Of a stretch of 64,000 bases of DNA, positions 1,937 through 64,000 are shown one piece after another. Location of the stretch: contig CAVVMO010000004.1 in assembly GCA_963749345.1 (NCBI GenBank), forward strand, positions 2,986,588 through 3,050,587, written 5' to 3'. This DNA comes from an uncultured Bacteroidales bacterium (GTDB taxonomy: Bacteria; Bacteroidota; Bacteroidia; Bacteroidales; JAADJA01). Numbering within the stretch: the first letter of the stretch is position 1; the number at the start of each line of letters is the position of its first letter. Under the pieces are notes generated by a model. The model worked only from the letters and a program-made list of their open reading frames with translations, searched no databases and had not been told where the DNA came from. A program made the position numbers and the translations under genes.

Positions 1937-4247
1937 CTATAGTACCACAATCTTTTTTGAAATGATTTGTGAACCAATGTTCACCTTTAACAGATAGATA
2001 CCTTTTGACAAATCTGCAATACTAAATGATTCGCTGAAGGTTCCATTTGTTTCAGTTCTGTTGAGTAATGATTTAATCATCTGCCCTTCCAGGTTGTAAA
2101 GTGCAATCGTCAGGTTTTGTGATGATCCAAGTTCAACCGAAACCGAAATCTTATCTTTTGCCGGGTTTGGCTGAACCTGCAGATCAAAATTATGGGCCAA
2201 TAAATTATCTTCAGTTCCTGATAACAGGTCGAATTTATAGATATCGAAACCTGCAGGACCATCGGAAACAAAGACATGTCCGGCGTCATAGGTTACATTC
2301 ACTGCAAAGCAGCCGCTTCGCTTGAAGAATCCTTCAACAAAAGGCATCAGAGAATTGGCAATGTTGATGACCTGCACGCCCTCATTGATATAATTCGCAA
2401 CAAAAGCATAATTCCCGAAGATATCAATTGCCCATGCTGCATCACCTAATTGAAGGTAGCTTTCTTCAGCCGGATTGGCTGGATCGATTACATTGATCAC
2501 ACCAAATCCACCTTCGATGTCGGCAAGGTACGCATACCCACCGGAAGCGTTTATGTCATAAGCTTTGCCGGTATAATTTGGTAATCGTGAAATAAATACC
2601 GGATTTACAGGATCGGTGATGTCAAAAATATAAACTCCTTTGGTATCTTCTGTTTCGGAAGACCCCCAATCTGCCAGGTAAAGGTAATTTCCCTCAATAT
2701 CCAGTGCCTGTACATAGCACCATTCAACTCCCGGAATACCGCCATTCACCCAGCCCATTTCGTGAGCCACTAAAACCGGGCTTTCTGGATTCGAGAAATC
2801 AACTACCCGGAAACCATCCCACCAGCAGGCAACAAATGCGTAATTGCCCTTCAGACTGATATCGTATGTCATGACAGGAGCCATGTAATGTGCAATATAT
2901 TCAGGGTTGGCAGGATCGGAAATGTCCATGATATTTACCTTGTTGTTGGCAGTCATACTTTTTCGGGCAGAATACCGCAATATCGCCGGATACTTTGACC
3001 AAATCTCCCGATGTTTGATGATAGCCCACTTGAACAGGATGATTTTTATCGCTGATATCATACACTCTGAATCCATTGCTGCCGGAATAGGCATAGTTAC
3101 CCGAAACAGCAACATCCCAGGTAGAAGAGGGCAAAGGATATGCACTTGCAACAATGGGCGCCGAAGGTTGTGTGACATCCAGAAAGAGACAACCCTCTGT
3201 ACCACCGGTAGCAAAAACGGTATTATTTTTCCCGGCAATGTAAGTCTGGAAACCGCTATAATCAGCAATATGTTGTGGTAAGCCCGGATTGCTTACATCA
3301 ATAACATTGACACCTCCACCCGGATTGGTGGTCGAATTGGCAATGTAGGCATAATTATTAAAAACGGTCAGGTTCCATGGAGTGCCGCTTTGCGCTATCT
3401 GCCCGGTTAGGGTAGGAGGGAGGGATGTGAAATCATAAATTTTCATACCAAAGGCATAATTTACGATGTAGGCCAGGCTGCCGGTCACGTGCACACTCGA
3501 TGAAGCTGTGGAAATGGTAAATGCATTGGTCAGCAAGGGCGAGGCTGAAAGATCGATGGCTTTGGTGCCGGCATTAGCACCAGCCACAAAAAGCGTATCG
3601 TCTCTCTTAAATGAATTCCAGACCAGCTGTGTTCCTGAAAAGTTATAGGTACCGACTTTGGCCGGATTTTGAGGATCAGAAACATTGAAGACATCTATTC
3701 CATCAACTACATTGGAAAGGTAAGCAAATTCAGGTGTTCCGGAAGCGCTATTGCGGAAATGTACACCTCCTCTGGGTAAGCCTGTGGCAGGCGCGCGCCC
3801 TAACCGCTGCGGGTTATAAATATCCGAAAGGTCCCAGACCTCAATCCCTGAAAAATAAGCGGCAAGGTAAAGCAAATGATTTACAGGGTCGTAGCTGATG
3901 CCATCCACAAGGGCTCTGGCAGAAATCTCCGAAAGCTTAACCGGATTGTAAGGATCGGTCGCATCAAAAATGATGACCCCTGCACCGGAACCTGCAAAAA
4001 CCGTATCTCCTGTCGGGCTGCACGAAACAGAAAAACTCTGCCCGAAACCCCAGTTGCCGGTAAAGGACATGTTCAGCGAATCGTAGTCGCTGATTTTCAA
4101 ATTTGAATTGTTAATTTCAATTGATTTTGAAATCTGATTTAAGCTACCTGATCGGGTAATGCTTTGTTTCACTAATTCATATTGACTTTGAGAAATTACG
4201 TTCAAAGCAATCATGAAAACCAGCAGGGATGTAAAGATCGTTTTCAT
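1937..4247 (-). pseudogene. LVIVD-repeat beta-propeller protein with T9SS C-terminal sorting domain; frame break around 2945-2985
   Basis: Signal peptide MKTIFTSLLVFMIALNVISQ. Repeated GNYAY(V/I)A...G(V/L)x(V/I)xD(V/I)S(N/D)P motifs. CTD ...GIYLLKVNIGSQIISKKIVVL. ORFs 2901..4247 and 1937..3268 are two frames of one gene; an A5/T5 run at 2959-2963 lies in the switch zone. Confidence 0.7.
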
Positions 4248-4360
4248 AAAAATGATGTTTTTTTTCGAGCCTAAAGATAAAAAGGATTACAACATATTGC
4301 AGCTTTGTGTAATTTTTTTTCTTGGTATTCATAATGGAAATAAATATTTAATACATCTAC

Positions 4361-4391
4361 TTGACTTCGATGTTTTTTTGTATTATCTTTA
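4361..4391 (+). promoter_or_regulatory. Bacteroidota-type promoter (TTG-N20-TATCTTTA)
   Basis: cTTGa at 4361-4363 and TATCTTTA at 4384-4391, 37 nt upstream of the ATG at 4428. A ~70-bp block (4355-4424) recurs at 13385-13454. Confidence 0.45.
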
Positions 4392-4427
4392 GCGCCTAAA
4401 TTTCAATACCAACAAAACACAATTGTC

Positions 4428-6362
4428 ATGAAAAAGATGATTTTTACCCTAGTAGCAGCAGCTATCAGCTATAATATTGTTTTTTCCCAGCCCTGCCTGC
4501 CTGAAGGCATCACATTTACAACGCAGGAACAGATTGATAATTTCCAAACCAATTATCCGGGGTGCACTGAAATAGAGGGTGATGTTATTATTGGAGGAAA
4601 CAACATCTCCAACCTCGATGGGTTAAGTTTAGTAAATGCGGTGGGTGGTTTTTTATGACTGTGCGACAATGCAGTCCTGACAAACGTAGCCGGATTGCAA
4701 ACGATAACTTCCATTGGAGGAAACCTATGGATTTATGAAAACGATGCACTGGTCAATATAGCCGGTCTGGGAAATATTTCCCCGGCCTCAATCAATAATC
4801 TATACATCTACAACAACCCGCTTCTTTCCAATTGTGAGATTGCCAGCATATGCGAATACCTGTTAAGCCCTAACGGGGCAGTAAATATTTACAATAATGC
4901 TAGTGGCTGCAATAGCCAGGCAGAGGTAGAAGAAGCATGTGAAACGTTACCCTGCCTGCCCGAAGGCATTACATTTAATAGTCAAGAACAGATCGATAAT
5001 TTCCAAACCAATTACCCGGGATGTACAGTTATTGAAGGAGATGTTAATATTAAGGGTGAGGATATAACTAATCTTAATGGATTGATTATATTAAATTCAA
5101 TTGAGGGAAATCTTCATATTGGAGGATTTTGGAGTTTAAGCAATAATTCTTTAACAAATCTTCAAGGATTAAACAATTTGACAACTATAGGCGGATCACT
5201 TGAAATTAATTATAATATTGCCTTGGTAACCACTGCAGGACTTGATAATCTTTTATCAGTCGGATCGGATTTGAGTATCCTTTCAAACAATAATCTTGCA
5301 AATCTAATTGGACTTAATGAATTATCATTGGTTGGAGGTGACATATCCATCCGTTATAACGGAGTACTTTCCAGCCTGGAAGGATTAGATAACATTAATT
5401 CAGCTTCAATTAGCAATTTGGCTATCTACGAGAACAACCAATTATCAGAATGTGCGATTGAGAATATTTGCAATTATTTGATTGATCCAAATGGAACTGT
5501 AATAATTTACAATAATTCATATGGTTGTCAAAGCCCTCAGGAAATTGCAGGTAATTGCGGAATAACATTACCATGTTTACCTTACGGTAATTATTATTTC
5601 TATTCTCAGGAAGATGTAAATAATTTTCAAATTAATTACCCAAATTGTAATGATTTAGAAGGAGATGTCACTATTCATGGCTATTATATATATGATCTCA
5701 TGGGTCTAAATTATATAACTTCAATTGGTGGAAGTCTCTATATTCAAGGTGGGCATATTAATAACCTTATGGGTCTAAGTAACCTAAGTTCAATTGGCGC
5801 AAACCTTACAATACGGGGTAATCCGTGTTTAATAAGTTTTACCGGACTCAGCTCTCTATCAGAAATAGGTGGATTTTTAAGGATTGACTTAAATCAAAAC
5901 TCATTATTGACAAGCCTTTCTGGATTAGATAATATAACAGCAGCATCCATTTCGGATTTGATAATTGTAGGCAATTATTCTGTATCCGAATGCGATATTC
6001 AAAATATCTGTGCCTATTTGATAAATCCAAACGGTAATGTTGAAATCCATGACAACGCCCCCGGCTGCAACAGCACGGAAGAGGTTGAGTTGCATTGCCT
6101 GACACAGGTAGAAGAAATTAAAACCGGAAATGGAATTACAATTGTACCTAATCCCTCAAACGACAAAATCACCATTTCATCATTTGCATTAACAGTACCC
6201 ATCCAGCTTTCAATCTTCAATGTCAGCGGGGAAAGAGTATTTGAAGGGCAGCTAACTGATATCGAAACCCAAATCGACATCAGTAACCTGCCACAGGGAG
6301 TTTATTTTGTGAGGGTGCAGGATGAAAAGATGGTGGAGGTGGAAAAGATAATTAAACAATAA
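4428..6362 (+). pseudogene. Secreted receptor-L/LRR-like repeat protein with T9SS CTD; in-frame TGA at 4656-4658
   Basis: ORFs 4428..4658 and 4695..6362 are in the same frame, separated by one TGA. Signal peptide, three CLPEGITF..QEQIDNFQ..YPGC modules, (I/L)GGxLxIxxNxxL repeats, CTD LSIFNVSGERVFEGQL...GVYFVRVQDEKMVEVEKIIKQ. Confidence 0.7.
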
Positions 6363-6365
6363 ATA

Positions 6366-6429
6366 GTTCAGAGTTCAGGGTTTTGGGTTCAGGGTCGATA
6401 CTCAGAACTCAGAACAACGAACTCAGAAC
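6366..6429. repeat. Intergenic word-repeat hairpin (GTTCAGGGT / ACTCAGAAC family), copy 1
   Basis: gttcagagttcagggttttgggttcagggt cgat actcagaactcagaacaacgaactcagaac. The arms are imperfectly complementary. A near-identical copy lies at 8509-8572. Confidence 0.7.
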
Positions 6430-6450
6430 TAAATAAAAAAGAAGGTTAAC

Positions 6451-8505
6451 ATGAAAAACATTACATTTTTAATCATCGTTCTGCTGTTTATCAGTTTTAC
6501 AGCTTTTTCTCAATCGCCCTGCCTGCCCGAAGGCATTACCTTTAATACTCAAGAACAGATCGATAATTTCCAATTAAATTTCCCGGGGTGTACGGAGATT
6601 GAGGGGGATGTTTTGATTTTTGGGGGGTGGAGTATTACAAACCTGGCTGGGTTAAATATGATAACTTCAATTGGGGGTGATCTTGATTTTGAAGAAAGCC
6701 ATGTACTGACCAGCCTTACAGGGCTGGAGAATCTTACTTCGATTAATGGGCGTCTTTGGATTTATCAGACAGATGCCTTGAGCCTGACAGGAATTGAAAG
6801 CTTAACTTCCATTGGTGGTGATCTTTGGTTTACCGAAAACGAATCCCTGGCTAATTTATCTGGGCTTGATAATCTGAACTCTGTTGGTGGTGATATTTTG
6901 ATTTCAGGTAACCCTGCCCTGACCAGCCTGACGGGGCTGGAAAGTTTAGTTACAATAAACGGTAATCTAAGAATTGGTGAACTTGATTATGGTGGCAATC
7001 CTTCACTTGTTAGTATAGCGGCGCTGAATAATCTGACTTACATTGGCGGTATGCTTAGGATTGCTGATAACGATGCGCTGACAAGTTTGACGGGACTGGA
7101 AAATGTATCTGCTCTCGGCGGTGAACTTGGGATTTGCTATAACTTCTCCCTGACGAATTTATGTGGACTTGATAATTTGACTTCCATAGGTGGTGAGCTG
7201 TATATTATATACAACTACCTGACTAATTTAACAGGACTCGAGAATCTGACTTCTATCGTCGGTGGTATTCATATTTGGAATAACTATGCACTTACAAGTT
7301 TAGCGGGTCTTGAGAATCTGACTTATTTTAGTACTCTTTCTATATACAACAACTTTTCCTTATCTGCTTGCGAAGCGCCGTGGCTATGTTATTATCTGTC
7401 GAATCCGAACGGTTATGTTTATATTTATGGCAATGCCGATGGTTGTAGTGGTGTTGTCGAATTAGCCGTTGCTTGCGGTGGTGGTATGCCTTGCCTGCCT
7501 TACGGACATTATTATTTTGAAAGCCAGGAAGATATTGACAATTTTCAATCGGCTTTTCCAAATTGTCAAACATTGGAAGGTAATGTTAGCATTAGCGGAA
7601 GCGATATTAACAGTCTGAATGGACTAAACATAGTAACTTCAATCAGTGGTCTCCTTGATATAAATAATAACACTACCCTCACAAGTATTACAGGAATAAA
7701 TGGCCTGACTTCAACAGGAGGTCTTTCAATAGATGGTAACAATGTTCTGACTAACCTAATGGGCCTGAATAATATAACCTCTATTGATTGGCAACTAAAT
7801 ATTACTGGAAATTCCGTACTGACCAGTTTGACTGGTTTGGAGAATCTGACCTTCATCGGGGATGATTTTTCCTTATATGACAATAACGCCCTAACCAGCC
7901 TTACAGGGTTGGAAAGTTTGACCACAGTAAATGGAAGTCTGAATATTGGCACACAGTCCTATGGCGGTAATCCTTCACTGGTCAATTTGACGTCGCTGAA
8001 TAATCTGACTTCCATAGGGGGAGACCTGCGGATCGGATATAACGATGCCCTGATCAGTTTGACAGGGATTGACAACATAGAACCTAATTCAATCAATTAT
8101 TTGTCAATCTTTGGTAACGATGTTTTATCAACTTGTGATGTACAAAGTATATGCGATTACCTTACCCTTCCGGGTGCTATGGTTAACATCAGCAATAATG
8201 CCCCCGGCTGTAATAGCCAGGAGGAGATAGAAGAACATTGCCTTACTGAGGTTGAAGAAACGACAGCCCGATCAGGAATAACACTAATTCCCAATCCTTC
8301 AAAAGACATAATCACCATTTCATCACCTGCAATAAATGGAAATACATTTCTTTCTATATTTAATGTTAACGGAGAGAAAGTTATAGAAAGGCAGTTACAG
8401 GAACCCGAAACCCGAATCGACATCAGCGCTCTGCCGCGGGGAGTGTATTTTGTGAGGGTGCGGGATGAGGAGATGATAGAGATGGAAAAGATAATTAAAC
8501 AATAA
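6451..8505 (+). CDS. Secreted receptor-L/LRR-like repeat protein with T9SS CTD (paralog of 4428..6362)
   Basis: 684-aa intact ORF with a signal peptide, CLPEGITFNTQEQIDNFQLNFPGC and CLPYGHYYFESQEDIDNFQ modules, LTSLTGLENLTSIGG repeats, and CTD LSIFNVNGEKVIERQL...GVYFVRVRDEEMIEMEKIIKQ. Confidence 0.85.
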   Translation: MKNITFLIIVLLFISFTAFSQSPCLPEGITFNTQEQIDNFQLNFPGCTEIEGDVLIFGGWSITNLAGLNMITSIGGDLDFEESHVLTSLTGLENLTSINGRLWIYQTDALSLTGIESLTSIGGDLWFTENESLANLSGLDNLNSVGGDILISGNPALTSLTGLESLVTINGNLRIGELDYGGNPSLVSIAALNNLTYIGGMLRIADNDALTSLTGLENVSALGGELGICYNFSLTNLCGLDNLTSIGGELYIIYNYLTNLTGLENLTSIVGGIHIWNNYALTSLAGLENLTYFSTLSIYNNFSLSACEAPWLCYYLSNPNGYVYIYGNADGCSGVVELAVACGGGMPCLPYGHYYFESQEDIDNFQSAFPNCQTLEGNVSISGSDINSLNGLNIVTSISGLLDINNNTTLTSITGINGLTSTGGLSIDGNNVLTNLMGLNNITSIDWQLNITGNSVLTSLTGLENLTFIGDDFSLYDNNALTSLTGLESLTTVNGSLNIGTQSYGGNPSLVNLTSLNNLTSIGGDLRIGYNDALISLTGIDNIEPNSINYLSIFGNDVLSTCDVQSICDYLTLPGAMVNISNNAPGCNSQEEIEEHCLTEVEETTARSGITLIPNPSKDIITISSPAINGNTFLSIFNVNGEKVIERQLQEPETRIDISALPRGVYFVRVRDEEMIEMEKIIKQ

Positions 8506-8508
8506 ATG

Positions 8509-8572
8509 GTTCAGAGTACAGGGTTTTGGGTTCAGGGTTGAAACTCAGAACTCAGAACACCGAACTCAGAAC
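8509..8572. repeat. Intergenic word-repeat hairpin (GTTCAGGGT / ACTCAGAAC family), copy 2
   Basis: Same architecture and position (directly after a T9SS cargo stop codon) as 6366-6429. Confidence 0.7.
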
Positions 8573-8593
8573 AAAATAAAAAGGGTGGTTAAA

Positions 8594-11109
8594 ATGAAAA
8601 AATTATTACTTATTACCTGCGGTTTAGCGATAGCGGCAGTAGTGGAAGCACAGATTATCCATGTGCCGGGCGATTATCCCACGATCCAGCAAGGGATTGA
8701 TGCTGCAAACACCGGCGATACCGTTTTGGTCGACCCGGGAACCTATCTGGAAAATATTTACCTCAATAAGAATATTACTCTTTCCTCACTTTACCTGACC
8801 ACTCTGGATACTTCCTTTATATCTCAAACCATCATTGATGGGTGTCATATTAGCCATGTAATAAATATAGTATTTCCTGTTGATACAAATTGCTTTATTA
8901 CAGGTTTTACGATCACAAATGGATATACTGAATATTTGGGTGCCGGAATTATCTGTTCGGGGGCATCCCCTGTACTAAGTTACCTGGTCATTAAGAATAA
9001 TCACGCAGAATATGGGTATATGAGTTATGATGGCGATGGTGGTGGTATTGGATGCGGTATTTATAGTATTACTCCAGGGGGATATACATATTCCTTTCCA
9101 AGGATAAGACATGTCGAAATTTCGGGTAATACTTCTGATGGAGCTGGTGGCGGATTGTACGCCGGTGGAGGTCATACCTATATGGAAGATGTAACATTCC
9201 ATGACAATAGCGGTGGCTGGAACGGAGGTGCAATATATATAGCCATAGGAGATGTTGGCGGTCTTAGCATGAAAAATATTAAAGTGTTTAATAATATTTC
9301 TTATGGAAGCATCATTCACTTGCTTTTTTTGGGATGAAACTTGCAATATCAATTGAGAATGTGACCGTTAATGATAATTCTGGAAATGCTTTTATTATGG
9401 ATACTTATGATGAACCAGGTAGTTTAAATTTGAACCATGTTATTCTTGAAAACAATGCCGGATTCGGATTGCAGTCAAATGGGGTAAACCTGAATTTAAG
9501 CGATGTGAGCATTCATAATAATGCAGGAGGTCTTATCAACGATGACGGAGAGATTGTTTTTGATACCCTTGAGCGATGCAGCATTTATAATAATTTTATT
9601 GGTTACAATAAGGAAATTGCAAGCAATGTTCCGATAGAGGTAGTGCTCGATACCTTTACGGTTCTCAATCCTACTTCATTTCATGTTGATACGCTGCCGA
9701 ACTTTTCATTCGACATTTTGCACGGATTATACGGGCAGATAAACGCTGACGTTTATGTTTCGCCTTCGGGTGATGATTTTAATAGCGGAATCACTCCTAA
9801 TGAACCGTTAAAAAGGATTGTTTGCGCTCAGGCAAGATTGCTCAGCCCCCATACAATTTATCTTGCCGGTGGCAACTACAGTTCATTATTGACAGGTGAA
9901 AATTTTCCCGTCATGTTATTGGATAGCCTCAACCTGATCGGTGTGTCTTCATCTGATGTGGTGATGGACGGTTCAGGGAATACTCTTTTGAAAATCAAAA
10001 ATAACAGCTATAATAACGTGTCAGGATTAACATTAACGGGCGGGGAACGTGGCATCTGGATAGAGAATTCAAATCCTTCGATTGAAGATGTTCATATAAC
10101 AAATAATTCCAATCAGTATAAAGGTGGAGGAATATATTCAACTGGTTCTAATCCAATTCTAAAGGACATTTTTCTTGAAGGAAATTCAGCGACTAATGGA
10201 GGCGGACTTTACTTTACCGAATCATTACCAACGCTGCGTAACCTCACAATAAAAGAAAATTCGGCAGATTGCGGTGGAGGAATATACTTTTTCGGATCCG
10301 ATCCATTCATTATGAACCTAAATATAATTCAGAATACGGCGTATAAGGGCGGGGGTATCTTTTTTAATAATTCTGATCCGTTTATCTGTAATTCAATCCT
10401 GGCTGATAATATTGCTACCAATTGGGGAGGAGGTATTTGCGGAGGAGGCGGATCATATATTCGGTTATCAAATTCAATTTTATGGAATAACGATGTTAAT
10501 CAAATTGCCCTCGTTGGAATTTATGGTGGTATAAATACTATAGAAATATCTTATTCAGATATCGAAGGTGGTGAAGAAGGGATTTATATATCAGGCACAG
10601 GGGCGGTAAACTGGCTGGAAGGCAATATGGTTGAAAATCCTCTCTTTGCAGTAAGCGGAGAACATCCATATGCCTTATCAGATGGATCACCATGCATCGA
10701 TGCTGGTATACCAGATACCACAGGCCTGAACCTTCCTTGCGAGGATATCATAGGTAATAAGCGTATCTGGGATGGAGACGGGAATGGAATCGCGGTTGTG
10801 GATATGGGAGCTTATGAGTTTGGATCGATACCGGTGGGAGTGAAAGAACCTCAAATATCAGTTCAGAGCCCGGAGTTTGAAGTTCGATGTTATCCAAATC
10901 CAACTCATAATAAAATAACCATTGAGTTATCTGCAATAACCAGTATTACCCAACTTTCAATATTCAATGTTAACGGCAAGAAAGTATTGGAAAGGCAGCT
11001 AACAGATAACGAAACCCAACTCGACATCAGCGCACTGCCACGGGGAGTGTATTTTGTGAGGGTGCAGGATGAGAAGAAAGTAGAAGTTGTAAAAATGATA
11101 AAACAATAA
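8594..11109 (+). pseudogene. Right-handed beta-helix (pectate-lyase-fold-like) repeat protein with T9SS CTD; frame break at a T7 tract
   Basis: ORFs 8585..9337 and 9334..11109 are joined if T7 (9324-9330) is read as T8: ...SIIHLLFFGMKLAISIENV. GGGIY/GGGLY repeats. CTD LSIFNVNGKKVLERQL...GVYFVRVQDEKKVEVVKMIKQ. The likely start is ATG 8594 (MKKLLLITCGLAIAA). Confidence 0.75.
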
Positions 11110-60633: not shown

Positions 60634-61146
60634 ATGAAGAAACAGATTATAACTACGTTAATTATTCTTTCAGGATTTGTGGGGATGGCACAGATTGGAA
60701 GCTCAGCCATCGGGCTCAGGGGCGGTGGCATATCGGGAATGACCATCAAATTAATTGATGAAGACCTGAGTGCAGTGGAAATTCTCCTGGGATTTCAGCG
60801 AAACGGATTGAAGATGACAGGAATGCTGCAGCGGTTCAAACCTATTAAAACGGACAGGATAAGTAACCTCTATGTTTTTTCAGGATTAGGCGCTCATGCC
60901 GGTTTTGAAAGATGGGATGATGAACAATCACAAACGGTAGACGGAGTCACTTACTATTCCTACCGCAAGGTTGTTTCTCCTGTTATTGGTGGTGACCTGA
61001 TCGTTGGACTTGAATATCATTTCGAGTCGGTTCCCTTTCATGTGAGCATCGATTACAAGCCCTATATGGAGTTTTTCGGCGAAAAGATTTTCAGGATCGA
61101 TTTCTGGGATATCGGTTTTTCGCTCCGTTATGTTATAAACCAATAA
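60634..61146 (+). CDS. Small outer-membrane beta-barrel protein (hypothetical)
   Basis: Signal peptide MKKQIITTLIILSGFVGMAQ. Alternating beta-strand pattern. Aromatic residue near the C-terminus (LRYVINQ). Confidence 0.5.
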   Translation: MKKQIITTLIILSGFVGMAQIGSSAIGLRGGGISGMTIKLIDEDLSAVEILLGFQRNGLKMTGMLQRFKPIKTDRISNLYVFSGLGAHAGFERWDDEQSQTVDGVTYYSYRKVVSPVIGGDLIVGLEYHFESVPFHVSIDYKPYMEFFGEKIFRIDFWDIGFSLRYVINQ

Positions 61147-61158
61147 AAATTAAATAAG

Positions 61159-61866
61159 ATGAAAAAAACAGTAATTTTAATGATGGCTTTGTTGACCGTT
61201 ACCATTGGTATGACACAGGAAGACAAAAGCAAAAATGACCAGGAATTCAAAACTATTTTTAATGCGAATAAAGGAGATAACAAAATTATCCATGGTGGTT
61301 ATGGTGGTATAATGATGAATTATACGCAGATTGACAACAAGGACGCCTTTCTCGCAGGTATACGCGGAATGTGGATCATCAATCACGGGATTGGAATCGG
61401 TATTGGTGGTTATGGATTTGCCAATGAGCTTAAGTTTGATCAAAATTCTTATGACAATCAGGACTATTCTCTTGCCGGAGGATATGGTGGCCTTATAATC
61501 GAACCCATCATTGCAGCCAAATCTCCGGTGCATGTATCTTTCCCGGTGCTAATTGGGGCTGGAGGTGTCGCTTCTATCCAGGAGCAATGGTCGCCTTATT
61601 CCTATCATGATGACAATTATTATTCAGAAGATGCAGCGGCTTACTTTGTTTTTGAACCTGGCGTTGAGGTGGAATTTAATATGGTAAAGTTTTTTAGGTT
61701 AGCGATGGGAGTTTATTACAAATTTACTTCTGACGTCAACCTTGATGTGTGGACAGGTACAAACTATGAAACTATAAATCCAAACCTTGGACTTAGTGTT
61801 AAAGATGAACCTAAAGTTCCAGGAGGTTTTTCGTTTGGATTGGCCCTCAAGTTTGGAAAATTTTAA
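61159..61866 (+). CDS. Hypothetical secreted/outer-membrane protein
   Basis: Signal peptide, Gly/aromatic-rich, C-terminal ...LKFGKF. Confidence 0.5.
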   Translation: MKKTVILMMALLTVTIGMTQEDKSKNDQEFKTIFNANKGDNKIIHGGYGGIMMNYTQIDNKDAFLAGIRGMWIINHGIGIGIGGYGFANELKFDQNSYDNQDYSLAGGYGGLIIEPIIAAKSPVHVSFPVLIGAGGVASIQEQWSPYSYHDDNYYSEDAAAYFVFEPGVEVEFNMVKFFRLAMGVYYKFTSDVNLDVWTGTNYETINPNLGLSVKDEPKVPGGFSFGLALKFGKF

Positions 61867-61942
61867 ACTGGTTTGAAACCGGAATAGATTTTTAATATTT
61901 TTGCAGAATCTATTGCGGGAATATCCGTCAAGTGCCGGACAG

Positions 61943-61988
61943 GGCTCAGTTGGTAGTCCCGCCTTTGGCGGGATACCAAGCTAAGGGT
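61943..61988 (+). pseudogene. Truncated tRNA-derived unit (unit 0)
   Basis: GGCTCAGTTGGTA-G-TCCCGCCTTTGGCGGGA-TACCAAGCTAAGGGT. A D-loop fragment, an acceptor-like hairpin and a degenerate anticodon-arm 3' part. Confidence 0.6.
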
Positions 61989-62000
61989 AATAGATTTAAA

Positions 62001-62073
62001 GCGGGAATAGCTCAGTTGGTAGAGCATTAGCTTCCCAAGCTGAGGGTCGCGGGTTCGAGTCCCGTTTCCCGCT
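62001..62073 (+). tRNA. tRNA-Gly (anticodon CCC)
   Basis: Hand-folded 73-nt cloverleaf: GCGGGAA/TTCCCGC acceptor, GCTC-AGTTGGTA-GAGC, TTAGC-TTCCCAA-GCTGA, variable loop GGGTC, GCGGG-TTCGAGT-CCCGT, discriminator U. Confidence 0.9.
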
Positions 62074-62086
62074 CAAAAGAATAAAA

Positions 62087-62112
62087 GGCTTACAATGATG
62101 TAGGCCTTTTTT
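62087..62112 (+). terminator. Rho-independent terminator after tRNA-Gly
   Basis: GGCTTACA-ATGA-TGTAGGCC plus T6. Repeated after units 1 and 2 (62210-62235 and 62336-62361). Confidence 0.7.
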
Positions 62113-62122
62113 GTTTTTCCCA

Positions 62123-62194
62123 GGCTCAGTTGGTAGTCCCGCCATGGCGGGATCCCAAGGTGAGGGTCGCGGGTTCGAGTCCCGTTTCCCGCTC
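62123..62194 (+). pseudogene. tRNA-Gly-derived pseudo-unit 1
   Basis: GGCTCAGTTGGTA-G-TCCCGCCATGGCGGGA-TCCCAAGGTGAGGGTCGCGGGTTCGAGTCCCGTTTCCCGCTC. No 5' acceptor strand, and the D-stem 3' half and anticodon-stem 5' half are replaced by a hairpin. Confidence 0.75.
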
Positions 62195-62251
62195 AAAATT
62201 GGAAAGAAAGGCTTACAATGATGTAGGCCTTTTTTGTTTTTTCCCTATGCC

Positions 62252-62320
62252 CAGGTGGTAGTCCCGCCTTTGGCGGGATCCCAAGCTGAGGGTCGCGGGT
62301 TCGAGTCCCGTTTCCCGCTC
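62252..62320 (+). pseudogene. tRNA-Gly-derived pseudo-unit 2
   Basis: CAGGTGGTAGTCCCGCCTTTGGCGGGATCCCAAGCTGAGGGTC... with a 3' 42 nt identical to the tRNA. 126-bp period to unit 3. Confidence 0.75.
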
Positions 62321-62377
62321 AAAATTGGAAAGAAAGGCTTACAATGATGTAGGCCTTTTTTGTTTTTTCCCTATGCC

Positions 62378-62446
62378 CAGGTGGTAGTCCCGCCTTTGGC
62401 GGGATCCCAAGCTGAGGGTCGCGGGTTCGAGTCCCGTTTCCCGCTC
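62378..62446 (+). pseudogene. tRNA-Gly-derived pseudo-unit 3
   Basis: Identical to unit 2 over the tRNA-like part. Followed by a different terminator (62459-62487). Confidence 0.75.
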
Positions 62447-62487
62447 AAAAGAAAAGAAAGATCTGTTTAATGACAGGTCTTTTTTTG

Positions 62488-62559
62488 CTCAGTTGTTAGT
62501 CCCGCCTTTGGCGGGATCCCAAGCTGAGGGTCGTCCCGCTGAGGCGGGATTTCCCGCTC
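62488..62559 (+). pseudogene. tRNA-Gly-derived pseudo-unit 4 (T arm also replaced)
   Basis: ...TCCCGCCTTTGGCGGGATCCCAAGCTGAGGGTC-GTCCCGCTGAGGCGGGAT-TTCCCGCTC. A second TCCCGC/GCGGGA hairpin sits where the T arm should be. Terminator at 62573-62600. Confidence 0.7.
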
Positions 62560-62711
62560 TCAATGATGACAAGGGTTTGCTGGATTTAGCAAACCTTTTT
62601 CGTTTTAAGTGGATACATATTTGGATACATGAAAACCTGTTTACATTGGTTGTTAATATCTTTTTTTATCTTTGAAGTTGACTATTTTACAATTTCTAAA
62701 TTTTATTGATC

Positions 62712-63662
62712 ATGTCTGAAAAAATTACATTTATCCTTGGTGCGGGGTCAAATAAGGATTATGGTTTTCCACTTGGGTTTGATTTATATAAAATGACGAT
62801 TAAGGATTTAGAAAATTTAAATACAGAAGAAGAAGAGAAGAGTGAATTATTTAAAATATTGAGGCATTTTAATTTAATAATGCATATTGATGTATTTAGG
62901 AATAAGCTGGAGGGTTCTCAATTTAGCTCATTAGATGAATTTGTTTATCATTATCCAGAATATGAAAAAATTGTAAGATACATAATAAGCTATTATATAA
63001 TTTGGTATGAGGATAATTCTAAACTCTTGGAACTTAGTAACGAAAATCATTGGTATCGGTCTTTTTGGAAAAATATTAAAACTTACAACTTTGAAGATTT
63101 ACCGAAAGGAAAATATGGATTTATTACTTTTAATTATGATCGATCATTAGAGGCTTATTTTACAGAAGTTATGTATAATACATATTTTAACCAAATTAAA
63201 AAAGATCGATTTGAGATTTATAATTTACTGAATGATTATTTCCCTATTTACCATGTTTACGGGCATTTGGGAAAGTTATATGCAAATGGTCGTAATAGTT
63301 TTGAGTATGGAGCTAAACGAAGTGCAAGCGAAAGTATATTAAGAAGTAACTTTGTTGATAAAATAAATTTTGCTTCTCGTCAAATTGAATTAATATTTTC
63401 AAAGAGGCAAGAAAAACCAGAACTTCAAAAAATCTTTAAAAGGTTAGAAAATTCAGATAAAATAATTTTTTTGGGATTTGGATTTGATGATCTTAACCTT
63501 GAAAATTTAAAAATAAAAGAATTAAATAAAACAAAAATTGGTTATGTTAGAGGGTTATCTACTAAAAGAGTAAAACAACTTAAATCAATTTATAATATAA
63601 ATTGTAATACAATTCATATTGATAATATTGTGGAATATTTGAAAAGGATTGAGATTATTTAG
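62712..63662 (+). CDS. SIR2-like (SIR2_2 family) domain protein, stand-alone about 316 aa
   Basis: ITFILGAGSNKDYGFPLG (Rossmann GAG), GFITFNYDRSLE (compare the TTNYD motif), IYHVYGHLG, IIFLGFGFDDLNL. Strongly AT-rich. Confidence 0.65.
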   Translation: MSEKITFILGAGSNKDYGFPLGFDLYKMTIKDLENLNTEEEEKSELFKILRHFNLIMHIDVFRNKLEGSQFSSLDEFVYHYPEYEKIVRYIISYYIIWYEDNSKLLELSNENHWYRSFWKNIKTYNFEDLPKGKYGFITFNYDRSLEAYFTEVMYNTYFNQIKKDRFEIYNLLNDYFPIYHVYGHLGKLYANGRNSFEYGAKRSASESILRSNFVDKINFASRQIELIFSKRQEKPELQKIFKRLENSDKIIFLGFGFDDLNLENLKIKELNKTKIGYVRGLSTKRVKQLKSIYNINCNTIHIDNIVEYLKRIEII

Positions 63663-63683
63663 CATTTTAAAATTAGTTCCATA

Positions 63684-64000
63684 ATGAAAAAACTACTTTC
63701 TGATTTTTTAAATTTGTTTACGCCTTACAATAAAATTGAAGTTCATTTCTGGTGGATTATAATTCTAATTATTTTACTCTTGACCTTGGTTATTGCGTAT
63801 TCTATCTATTTTGCCTTAAAAGAAAGGAATAAAGAATTATCAAAGAAAGATTTAGCAAGAAAAAAATTGATCTCTGAGATAAGGAATTTTAAATTATTTT
63901 GGTTAACACCGAGTTTAAGTTTAGCTACCACAGTTGTTGTTGCAATAGTAGGGTGGCGATCAGGCTTTTTTGAGACAAATTTGAAGTTAATAGAGATTAA
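63684..64000 (+). CDS. Membrane protein of unknown function, 3' end outside the window
   Basis: ATG 63684, 21 nt after the SIR2-like stop codon. Open to the window end. TM helices FWWIIILIILLLTLVIAYSIYFAL and LSLATTVVVAIVGW. Not in the ORF track because there is no stop codon. Confidence 0.5.
   Translation, partial: MKKLLSDFLNLFTPYNKIEVHFWWIIILIILLLTLVIAYSIYFALKERNKELSKKDLARKKLISEIRNFKLFWLTPSLSLATTVVVAIVGWRSGFFETNLKLIEI

Follow-up and report, generated by a model that had tools for sequence, protein, structure and literature searches.

The 64,000-nt stretch of DNA analysed here in its entirety (the window) comes from an uncultured Bacteroidales bacterium and contains its single-copy tRNA-Gly(CCC) gene, accompanied by one tRNA-derived unit upstream (u0) and four downstream (u1-u4), with a terminator-like hairpin present for every unit. 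Similar units recur in related genomes, where they are polymorphic for presence and absence; the tRNA 3' part that several of them repeat is used by real attP sites, and the terminators of the array match the tRNA flanks of sister genomes. The units are probably inert gene fragments left at an attachment hotspot of Bacteroidales tyrosine integrases by the integration and loss of elements together with unequal recombination. This type of locus is in itself ordinary; the unusual part is a hairpin that recurs within the fragments.

Anatomy of the tRNA-Gly(CCC) array

According to ARAGORN, the tRNA-Gly(CCC) gene is the sole tRNA in the 64 kb. The features of the locus are listed below.

61896-61903, + strand: putative Bacteroidetes-type -7 promoter box TATTTTTG (sequence; comparison with L046 and L047)
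61915-61988, + strand: pseudo-unit u0 (R1 covariance model, 69.5 bits)
61915-61923, + strand: u0, 5' acceptor strand GCGGGAATA
61924-61943, + strand: u0, 20-nt insertion with a small hairpin
61944-61956, + strand: u0, D-loop segment
61957-61973, + strand: u0, hairpin H1
61974-61988, + strand: u0, decayed anticodon-loop segment TACCAAGCTAAGGGT
61989-62000, + strand: spacer AATAGATTTAAA between u0 and the tRNA (RNAfold of the precursor)
62001-62074, + strand: functional tRNA-Gly, anticodon CCC (ARAGORN; Rfam tRNA model RF00005, 70.3 bits)
62083-62110, + strand: terminator tA, copy 1 (further copies at 62204-62235 and 62330-62361)
62123-62194, + strand: u1, with D-loop segment, H1 with loop AT (62137-62152) and the 42-nt 3' half with one mismatch
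62249-62320, + strand: u2, with decayed D-loop segment GCCCAGGTGGTAG, H1 (62262-62278) and the exact 42-nt 3' half
62375-62446, + strand: u3, pseudo-tRNA part identical to u2
62460-62486, + strand: terminator tB, GATCTGTTTAATGACAGGTC followed by a T run
62487-62559, + strand: u4, D-loop segment and then H1 (62500-62516)
62517-62532, + strand: u4, anticodon-loop and variable segment
62533-62550, + strand: u4, hairpin H2 replacing the T arm
62551-62559, + strand: u4, 3' acceptor strand TTCCCGCTC
62571-62598, + strand: terminator tC
62611-62630, + strand: two direct repeats GGATACAT, starting at 62611 and 62623 (sequence; comparison with attP/attL layouts)
62712-63662, + strand: gene for a SIR2_2-like protein (316 aa), with which the AT-rich variable region begins (Pfam PF13289)

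A preliminary description of this locus had reported one genuine tRNA-Gly with a unit upstream and four units downstream, and this was borne out by ARAGORN, by Rfam and by the positions of blocks and hairpins. The 42-nt block TCCCAAGCTGAGGGTCGCGGGTTCGAGTCCCGTTTCCCGCTC, whose copies begin at U33, occurs four times, at 62033 (within the tRNA), 62153 (one mismatch, G for C), 62279 and 62405, and u1-u3 keep the 3' part of the tRNA as described, including the substitution in u1. The block was found in none of 100 shuffles and nowhere else in the 64-kb window, which consequently holds no distal copy. Tandem Repeats Finder returned a period of 126, with 3.4 copies and 95% matches over 62033-62450, in agreement with the 126-bp spacing given earlier, and u1 and u2 are identical at 119 of 120 positions in register. 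Near-identical 126-bp repeats such as these are poorly handled by short-read assemblers, and their copy number could in principle have been inflated or collapsed. Such an artefact is extremely improbable, as arrays of the same design, with differing unit numbers and point differences, are present in independent assemblies from other samples (L008, L009, L004 and L013), the window units differ from one another at diagnostic positions, and the source contig is apparently longer than 1 Mb.

In each unit, hairpin H1 substitutes tRNA nt 23-32, which comprise the D-stem 3' strand and the anticodon-stem 5' strand; the hairpin reads TCCCGCC-TTT-GGCGGGA at 61957, 62262, 62388 and 62500, and has a version with a 2-nt loop at 62137. 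The earlier statement that the D-stem and anticodon-stem region is replaced is thus correct for nt 23-32 only, as the units keep the D loop along with the 5' strand of the D-stem (GCTCAGTTGGTAG). In u4 a second hairpin, H2 (GTCCCGC-TGAG-GCGGGAT), stands for the T arm, as had been noticed. Likewise, the absence of the 5' acceptor strand, previously attributed to all units, holds for the downstream ones; u0 retains this strand and is instead devoid of the T arm and the 3' acceptor strand.

Regarding u0, the box TATTTTTG is likely the promoter for the entire transcript of u0 and the tRNA, judging from its sequence and from TAnnTTTG, which we take to be the Bacteroidetes promoter consensus; an identical -7 box immediately precedes the real tRNA in the relatives L046 and L047. 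The spacer AATAGATTTAAA is complementary to the leader at 61905-61914, so that u0 is predicted by RNAfold to be closed as a separate folded domain.

Neither ARAGORN nor the Rfam tRNA model detected the units, both finding 62001-62074 only, and a Rfam search of 61000-64000 at E values up to 1 yielded the tRNA alone, the sub-threshold matches to Phe_leader and CRISPR-DR58 (the latter with 24 bits, E 0.13) being due to chance. All units lack one acceptor strand as well as nt 23-32, and their predicted folds are rods devoid of an acceptor stem (two rods in u4, z -4.6); none of the units is a tRNA. The preliminary description had also raised the possibility of transcribed tRNA-like RNAs, in which GCGGGA of the hairpin and the downstream TCCCGC would form an acceptor/T-arm minihelix; applied to u1-u3, such a helix could be processed and perhaps charged. 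This alternative fold does exist in u1-u3, only 4.8 kcal/mol above the minimum when forced, and from its sequence it would present the tRNA-Gly discriminator U and the G1-C72 and C2-G71 pairs. Nevertheless, the predicted fold always has the hairpin, u1-u4 are situated behind terminators, with one directly upstream of each unit, and no promoter-like site was found for them. The pairing cannot form in u0, which lacks the 3' strand, or in u4, which lacks the T arm; it is broken in L013 (GGCGGA vs TCCCGC) and not conserved in L010. With u1-u3 confined to this genome and invisible to both tRNA searches, transcribed minihelix RNAs are hardly credible.

Relatives, terminators and attachment sites

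Seven genomes with common flanking genes, the window included, carry from 0 to 5 units, distributed as follows.

L047: none
L046: degenerate u4 only
L048: degenerate u0 only
L004: u0 and u4
L008 and L009: u0 and two u4-type units
Window: u0 and u1-u4

Orthologues of u0 are hence found in L008, L009 and L004, with a degenerate one in L048 and none in L046 and L047, and those of u4 in L004, L008 and L009, with a degenerate copy in L046; u1-u3 were found in no relative and are window-specific. The units u0 and u4 are older than u1-u3, which are a 126-bp amplification specific to this genome. The tandem amplification formerly offered as one of three readings is upheld for these three units, absent as they are in every relative and with u1 and u2 99% alike. 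Among its refuting observations, the preliminary description had listed related genomes with the same array but no adjacent island and no expression, which would favour an inert duplication; as regards the island, L004 is such a case, with u0 and u4 adjoining a housekeeping gene (pterin-4a-carbinolamine dehydratase) and no island. Pattern scans retrieved one true locus (L004) and six chance matches from genome contigs, and six true loci and one chance match (L011) from metagenomes; two DNA-pattern scans of viral contigs gave chance matches only, and the plasmid database only ordinary tRNA-Gly genes.

Each terminator of the array has a counterpart behind the real tRNA of a sister genome. The flank with tA agrees with the real-tRNA flank of L009 (40/42 positions), the flank with tB with those of L008 (41/42) and L046 (35/42), and the flank with tC with that of L047 (37/42). 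Between the units there are terminators alone and no element DNA.

Furthermore, in real attP sites of Bacteroidales the TCCCAAGCTGAGGGTCGCGGGTTCGAGTCCCGTTTCCCGCTC block forms the identity block. An example is the attP of Bacteroides phage BS-TP2 (PQ571275), which reads ..TAATAAGC|TTCCCAAGCTGAGGGTCGCGGGTTCGAGTCCCGTTTGCCGCTC, with a terminator, a pair of direct repeats and the integrase gene coming next, a layout shared by MT838459. The direct repeats in these parallel layouts are GGTGCAAAT (twice) in BS-TP2, GAGTTAAAC (twice) in MT838459 and TTGTTAGGCAAA in L016, where an island with the same kind of integrase adjoins an intact tRNA-Gly(CCC). Integrases lie beside or within tRNA-Gly(CCC) in L010, L015, L016, L050, L058 and BS-TP2, the BS-TP2 integrase being 31% identical to that of L010; in a protein scan of viral contigs with the integrase alignment, the relatives found reached at most 30% identity over substantial stretches, and more only across ~40-50 residues. 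Related integrase islands split tRNA-Gly(CCC) in the anticodon loop in L010, L050, L015 and L058/59, and tRNA-Arg(TCT) at the matching position in L051. The islands of the L010/L015/L058 clade have only TCCCAAGC(TGAA) in common with tRNA-Gly(CCC), and the splitting islands carry int, HTH_17 and VapE-like primase genes plus defence cargo. ARAGORN found no tRNA-Gly in the island parts examined from L010, L015 and L050, nor in L053 and L054, which are part of the island that splits tRNA-Arg, and no far end (attR) of an island was present within 10 kb.

In the window, the order beyond u4 (3' acceptor strand, terminator, two direct repeats, AT-rich genes) is the order in real attL/attP sites, and by analogy this DNA appears arranged like a P' arm. 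The GGATACAT repeats are positioned like the integrase arm-type sites of real attP/attL and may correspond to them, with no integrase following. The GC content is 0.336 at 62001-64000 versus ~0.41 in the remaining window, and the first gene of this variable region encodes the SIR2_2-like protein (PF13289, E 7e-6; PADLOC SIR2 models match weakly), which is a decayed pseudogene in L046 and L047. The distal 42-nt copy and integrase suggested by the preliminary description did not materialise: neither lies within the 64 kb, the integrase having been sought with 121 queries, and the island extends past the window end.

These findings agree in outline with the stacked att remnants previously suggested, through the attP identity block, the anticodon-loop islands, the terminators in sister genomes and the P'-arm layout, and this reading and tandem amplification apply in combination. 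We propose that tRNA-Gly(CCC) serves as an attachment hotspot for tyrosine-integrase elements whose attP carries the stretch of tRNA between the anticodon loop and the 3' end and, behind it, the element's own terminator. Each integration would supply a new module of 3' half plus terminator and push the previous one downstream, which would be why tA, tB and tC differ. Unequal recombination at the common 42-45-nt blocks would have reshuffled the units, and the 126-bp amplification to u1-u3 would have taken place in this genome only. That integrases produced this particular array is what we infer from these parallels; since only terminators separate the units, unequal homologous recombination alone could have made much of it. 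Besides, integration at the anticodon loop alone leaves the H1-bearing upstream units unaccounted for.

A purely local origin would dispense with site-specific recombination altogether. Slippage or unequal crossing-over would have duplicated parts of the tRNA gene in tandem, and the copies would have decayed into pseudogenes, with template switching at quasi-palindromes making the hairpins and keeping them perfect. The units do adjoin terminators without foreign DNA and are decaying in L046 and L048, and u1 and u2 differ at one of 120 positions. Pairing of CCAAGCUGAG with the D-loop segment CUCAGUUGG is already seen in the predicted fold of the real tRNA, and each of the apparent compensatory changes described below for L004 and L010, whose covariation is not significant (39/500 shuffles), could be a single template-switch event. 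We consider this origin unlikely, as it leaves unexplained why the repeats start exactly at the integrase identity block and why three terminators are stacked, each being the tRNA flank of a sister genome. Moreover, the hairpins of L010 and L013 are not templated by the local tRNA, yet are near-identical at unrelated loci.

The recurring hairpin

The hairpin substitution at tRNA-Gly(CCC) recurs in four unrelated genomic contexts and five to six genomes: after an OMP-like gene (the clade of the window), after rseP (L013), before cinA (L012/L014), and in L010. Across 358 kb of related loci, every unit matched by the R1 model adjoins tRNA-Gly(CCC). As stated in the preliminary description, the hairpin arms equal the acceptor-stem strands in the window, and this extends to L004 and L012; the equality fails in L010 (acceptor GCGGAAG, hairpin GGCGGGG) and L013 (hairpin GGCGGA), which rule out that the arms are templated by the local acceptor stem. 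The arms are conserved and the loops variable (TTT, TCT, TTC, GTT, GTC, AT, TCA, TC, CAC, GC and GT), with two double compensatory changes; apparent compensatory changes include TCTCGCC/GGCGAGA in L004 and CCCCGCC/GGCGGGG in L010. The covariation of the long hairpin was not significant (two pairs changed on both sides, matched in 39 of 500 shuffles), and selection on the hairpin is weakly indicated. For one and the same hairpin sequence to be present in four unrelated contexts, the loci would have to share an ancestor, the hairpin to have spread horizontally, or a directed mechanism to have acted.

Other origins of the hairpin were weighed and set aside. The 8-bp junction palindrome GGGATCCC is the sole feature in keeping with formation through two deletions in a tRNA dimer, or through a hairpin-capped break at the integrase cleavage site, which is otherwise unsupported. 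Integron attC sites, REP/RAYT, IS200/IS605 and CRISPR were discarded, the hairpin copies of the 64 kb being confined to the array and the spacers repeating one another. The terminator after the VapE-like primase gene in L015/L058 (GTCCCGC.., GTCCTGCC..) resembles H1 and H2 by coincidence, because the L016 version differs and no att core is nearby.

Nucleotides 23-32 include the left anticodon-stem arm, the inverted repeat that serves such integrases as core site. The BS-TP2 attP retains this arm, as ATAAGC where the tRNA has ATTAGC; in the units, GCGGGA stands at this place. In the hotspot scheme, H1 would clamp the D-loop segment to the anticodon-loop segment, giving a rod, and H2 would likewise substitute the T arm in the oldest unit; as a consequence, the fragments could not be folded or processed as tRNA and would have neither an acceptor stem nor a symmetric core site. 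The hairpins may in this manner turn the units into dead att sites. H1 itself may have arrived on an element arm or spread among units by gene conversion; no H1-bearing arm was found in the island parts or phages examined, and no hairpin lies left of the BS-TP2 attP core.

Alternatively, the hairpin-clamped fragments could be a maintained module, acting as leaders that insulate the pre-tRNA, as a reserve of 3' halves, or as decoys or safe sites for landing, a distinctly unlikely view. The GC clamp, put in place of the left anticodon-stem arm and later of the T arm, would then hide tRNA-derived repeats from tRNA-processing enzymes and from the core-binding domain of integrases, host or elements would keep the repeats as protection of a single-copy tRNA often targeted by disruptive integrases, and the hairpin would be common to four unrelated loci through selection or because element arms spread it. 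Another version, in which the upstream units are selected as a structured pre-tRNA leader and all units as inert or decoy att sites protecting the gene from disruption or integrase-mediated deletion, appears very unlikely. It accords with the four unrelated contexts, with conserved arms, free loops and two double compensatory changes, and with the fact that both acceptor strands are together in no unit and that the hairpin deletes exactly the left core arm retained by a real attP. Additionally, the u0 copies of the window and L008 differ at 3 of 86 nt (96.5% identity, manual count), the flanking DNA being ~89% identical between the window and L009, where the same u0 is present, and u0 is predicted to form a closed domain leaving the tRNA fold free. 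Against it, units are lost or degenerate in the close relatives L046, L047 and L048, covariation has weak statistical backing, terminators precede the downstream units, L004 by inspection does not conserve the stem that closes u0, and many tRNA-Gly(CCC) loci targeted by integrases have no units (L015, L016, L050 and L058).

Comparison with known systems

Tandem genomic islands and CIME-like remnants reportedly form stacks of att direct repeats at tRNA/tmRNA genes, and direct-repeat stacks at ssrA are said to occur in Dehalococcoides. The window is similar to such stacks in that its direct repeats are the 3' part of the target gene and lie downstream of one intact copy, each repeat begins in the anticodon loop, and an AT-rich variable region with defence-like genes lies beyond, with a copy number that varies between strains. 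It differs in having almost no element DNA between the repeats, terminators only; in the upstream fragments with the 5' part of the gene; in the GC hairpin that every fragment has for nt 23-32, and once for the T arm; and in the absence of an integrase from its 64 kb. Stacks of this sort, left as integrative elements accrete and decay, are reportedly covered by the reviews PMC5704250 and PMC5812530 and, for ssrA of Dehalococcoides, by PMC3146451. By matching displaced modules of 3' half plus terminator to sister genomes, the history of a tRNA hotspot becomes reconstructable.

BS-TP2 and the Bacteroidales elements with Arm-DNA-bind_5/SAM_5 tyrosine integrases share with the window the same 42-45-nt tRNA-Gly(CCC) block, and in BS-TP2 the succession of block, terminator and two short direct repeats is that found after u4. 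In the phage, however, an integrase gene follows the repeats, where the window has the SIR2_2-like gene, and the arm left of the core keeps the anticodon-stem-like ATAAGC, with no hairpin. The recurrent hairpin deletes exactly the half-site that such integrases should need. If it is selected, it would represent a host- or element-side way to neutralise att-site repeats, of which we know no described example; if it is mere debris, the locus would be an ordinary, well-documented hotspot.

The integrase islands themselves point to a Bacteroidota clade with defence cargo for which it is routine to leave tRNA-Gly(CCC) and tRNA-Arg(TCT) split and not rebuilt, a behaviour that to our knowledge is otherwise known only from the tRNA-dependent lysogeny of mycobacteriophages. 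In that system, the attP overlaps the tRNA by only ~10 bp and integration destroys the gene (Guerrero-Bustamante and Hatfull, 2024; PMC10865867). The islands of the L010/L015/L058 clade, with the short core TCCCAAGC(TGAA), similarly leave tRNA-Gly(CCC) split, and would therefore generate 5' and 3' fragments like those of the window. In contrast, the window tRNA is intact, the island parts examined bring no replacement tRNA, and these are islands with int, HTH_17, VapE-like primase and defence cargo rather than mycobacteriophages.

Finally, partial, non-canonical tRNA genes made by integrating elements have been reported (van der Gulik et al., 2023; PMC9897764). The fragments in the abstract of that study are plain ones, with neither a hairpin substitution nor arrays flanking a gene on both sides being mentioned there. 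They resemble the units in being tRNA pieces beside canonical genes that are not to be annotated as tRNAs, and for annotation the five convincing-looking tRNA pieces of the window are likewise fragments and not genes.

Composition of the tRNA-Gly(CCC) gene and its fragments

ARAGORN recovered the tRNA-Gly(CCC) of the preliminary description, as the only tRNA gene of the whole window, and in a search of 61000-64000 it reached 70.3 bits with the Rfam tRNA model, with nothing else above threshold. One pseudo-unit (u0) lies upstream of this gene and four (u1-u4) downstream. The tandem array, the 42-nt block and the hairpin already described were all found again: Tandem Repeats Finder gave a period of 126 bp, 3.4 copies and 95% matches; the block lies at 62033 within the tRNA and at 62153 (1 mismatch), 62279 and 62405, with no further copies elsewhere in the 64 kb and none in shuffles; and the hairpin TCCCGCC-TTT-GGCGGGA (H1) lies at 61957, 62262, 62388 and 62500, with a 2-nt-loop form at 62137. 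The unit number is that of the assembly, and independent assemblies confirmed the array design.

Features of the window, by position
61896-61903, presumed Bacteroidetes-type -7 box TATTTTTG, ahead of u0
61905-61914, leader AGAATCTATT
61915-61923, GCGGGAATA, 5' acceptor strand of u0
61924-61943, 20-nt insertion TCCGTCAAGTGCCGGACAGG between the u0 acceptor strand and D-loop segment, with its own small hairpin
61989-61998, spacer AATAGATTT, complementary to the leader
62001-62074, tRNA-Gly(CCC)
62533-62550, second hairpin (H2), in u4
62611-62630, 8-mer direct repeats GGATACAT at 62611 and 62623, after the terminator tC
62712-63662 (+), SIR2_2-like ORF (Pfam E 7e-6; PADLOC SIR2 models match weakly), first of the AT-rich region that follows the repeats
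63686 onward, small ORF in AT-rich DNA, hydrophobic by eye

Composition in tRNA segments: a and A', the 5' and 3' acceptor strands; b, the 5' strand of the D stem with the D loop; c, nt 23-32; d, from the anticodon loop through the 3' strand of its stem to the variable region; e, T arm
tRNA gene: a, b, c, d, e, A'
u0: a, insertion, b, H1, d
u1-u3: b, H1, d, e, A'
u4: b, H1, d, H2, A'

Segment c is absent from all units, and the two acceptor strands occur together in none. The preliminary description is thereby refined: the units were said to lack the 5' acceptor strand, which u0 retains; the hairpin substitution holds, limited to nt 23-32, with the D-loop segment GCTCAGTTGGTAG kept in every unit; and the T arm of the last unit is indeed replaced, by H2. 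A terminator-like hairpin follows the tRNA and each of u1-u4, in the order tA (three times), tB and tC. The hairpin of the u0 insertion is a third small hairpin within a pseudo-tRNA.

In the predicted folds the units form rods in which H1 caps a helix of b and d, segments already complementary in the real tRNA, and u4 has a second short helix capped by H2; the folding z-score of the u0 core was -3.6 and that of u4 was -4.6. The leader and spacer are predicted to form an 11-bp stem closing off u0 just before the tRNA, which folds independently; conservation of this stem was not apparent in L004, the most distant syntenic locus. The proposal that the units are tRNA-like minihelix RNAs was not supported, the acceptor/T-arm minihelix of u2 being 4.8 kcal/mol worse than the predicted fold.

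Syntenic loci and terminator flanks

Six syntenic loci were obtained from one genome scan, one metagenome scan and look-ups via the upstream OMP-like protein.

Arrangement at the syntenic loci
L047: promoter, tRNA, tC, GGATACAT/AGATACAT repeat pair, decayed AT-rich DNA; zero units
L046: tRNA, tB, about 200 nt, degenerate u4, tC, GTATACAT repeat pair, decayed SIR2 gene
L048/L049: degenerate u0, tRNA, tB-like terminator; no u4
L008: u0, tRNA, tB, u4a, tA', u4b, tC, SIR2 gene
L009: u0, tRNA, tA, u4a, tA', u4b, with the contig end inside u4b
L004: u0 without the 20-nt insertion, tRNA, u4, pterin-4a-carbinolamine dehydratase gene

By this distribution, u0 and u4 predate the species of the window and were often lost or decayed; u1-u3 occur, among the loci compared, in the window only. 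At two more distant orthologues of the flanking gene (L055, L056), the tRNA is absent from the corresponding site. The terminators match the flanks of real tRNA genes in sister genomes: tA after the window tRNA and u2 agrees with that of L009 at 40/42 positions (39/42 for the copy after u1), tB after u3 with that of L008 at 41/42, and tC after u4 with that of L047 at 37/42. Therefore, each unit is a former or exchanged gene 3' end.

The insertion TCCGTCAAGTGCCGGACAGG is shared by the window, L008, L009 and L048. An 8-mer pair of the GTATACAT type also occurs in L008, just past the last terminator, and the SIR2_2 stretch, intact there, has decayed to a pseudogene in L046 and L047. The stretch of about 200 nt in L046 (10838-11010) is GC-richer and contains CGCAAAG-like repeats; it may be a small repeat element, or all that is left of an element.

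Hairpin substitution at unrelated loci

In the metagenome scan, units also turned up at tRNA-Gly(CCC) genes whose neighbours are quite unlike those in the window; in all of these units a CCCGCC/GGCGGG-type hairpin takes the place of nt 23-32.

Units at unrelated loci
L013: 4 upstream and 2 downstream units, between rseP and a region with an EACC1 gene and an ABC ATPase
L012/L014: 2 upstream units, both having a leader of their own, followed by a cinA-like gene (identified by eye)
L010: 2 upstream units

The arms had been equated with the acceptor-stem strands, an equation that fails for L010 and L013, where they differ from the local acceptor stem. A b-H1-d covariance model scored units at 40-74 bits versus 28-40 bits for real tRNAs and, in 358 kb of related loci, found units only beside tRNA-Gly(CCC). 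The hairpin loops vary freely. The arms differ little from unit to unit, showing several breaks and two double compensatory changes. In a pair-count test, the 2 pairs changed on both sides among 19 units were matched by 39/500 shuffles, which is not significant. That the hairpin units are functional seems improbable to us.

Among the window, L008, L009 and L004, the arms are constant and the loops read TTT, TCT, TTC, AT, GTT or GTC, differences between very close relatives being mostly C/T changes; raised mutation in an extruded hairpin loop may be involved. Downstream of the L013 array (2000-9000) lies a conflict-system-like cluster with an EACC1-domain protein, an ABC-type ATPase and several proteins without family match. 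Stems GTCCCGC../GTCCTGCC.. in terminators after VapE-like primase genes (L015 15271-15297; L058 19399-19425) resemble H1/H2, a likeness judged coincidental, the L016 counterpart being different.

Integrase islands and the origin of the array

At L010 an island interrupts the tRNA after TTCCCAAGC; it opens with a 407-aa tyrosine integrase whose domains are Arm-DNA-bind_5, SAM_5 and Phage_integrase. Homologues lie at the same kind of junction, splitting tRNA-Gly(CCC) in L050, L015 and L058/L059 and tRNA-Arg(TCT) in L051; in L016 the integrase adjoins an intact tRNA-Gly(CCC).

Stretches where gene-splitting islands were noted (also in L050 and L058/L059)
L010, 377-1600
L015, 9783-11215
L051, 8330-9761

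These islands carry int, HTH_17, a VapE-like primase and cargo such as BREX. Those that split tRNA genes form a Bacteroidota clade with defence cargo that inserts in the anticodon loop of tRNA-Gly(CCC) or tRNA-Arg(TCT) and leaves the gene split, shares only about 8-12 nt with the target gene and, in the parts read, brings no replacement tRNA. In L016 (9690-9770), the arm-type motif TTGTTAGGCAAA precedes the integrase gene and also lies upstream of the intact tRNA, which is therefore flanked as in attP; an earlier element may have left this behind.

Bacteroides phage BS-TP2, from the phage database, carries the block TTCCCAAGC...GCCGCTC followed by a terminator, two direct repeats and the integrase, and MT838459 has the same layout, which shows the 42-nt block to be the block of identity in genuine attP sites. 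In u4, A' is followed by the terminator and then by two direct repeats, as in a P' arm. The repeats at 62611-62630 occupy the position that arm-type integrase sites have in BS-TP2, MT838459 and L016, but here an integrase gene does not come next. Left of the core, BS-TP2 keeps the anticodon-stem-like ATAAGC, whereas the units have GCGGGA.

The preliminary description had offered att remnants and tandem amplification as separate readings; taken jointly, they give the most economical one, and the array is probably debris of element integration and unequal recombination at a tRNA-Gly(CCC) hotspot. Successive elements would supply a new 3' half and terminator, displacing old ones, and unequal recombination between shared blocks would shuffle the units and, in the window genome, amplify one of them. 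None of the fragments is a tRNA, and they probably do not serve as integrase substrates. Against integration, the units are not separated by element DNA, H1 was in none of the element arms read, and upstream units with H1 are not produced by anticodon-loop crossover alone: their formation would additionally require either an element-borne tRNA or gene conversion from unit to unit. Since, moreover, no integrase was found in the 64-kb window, where the island extends past the end, and a relative with units and no adjacent island, as envisaged beforehand, does exist (L004), purely local duplication with template-switch palindromes is a serious rival, although we consider it a good deal less probable than hotspot debris.

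Both tRNA gene fragments (PMC9897764) and tRNA-destroying integration (PMC10865867) are already described. The splitting islands resemble tRNA-dependent lysogeny. Direct repeats derived from tRNAs are also known to form arrays at integration hotspots. We know of no described case in which fragments flank the gene on both sides, all with the same GC hairpin for nt 23-32, and recur at unrelated loci.
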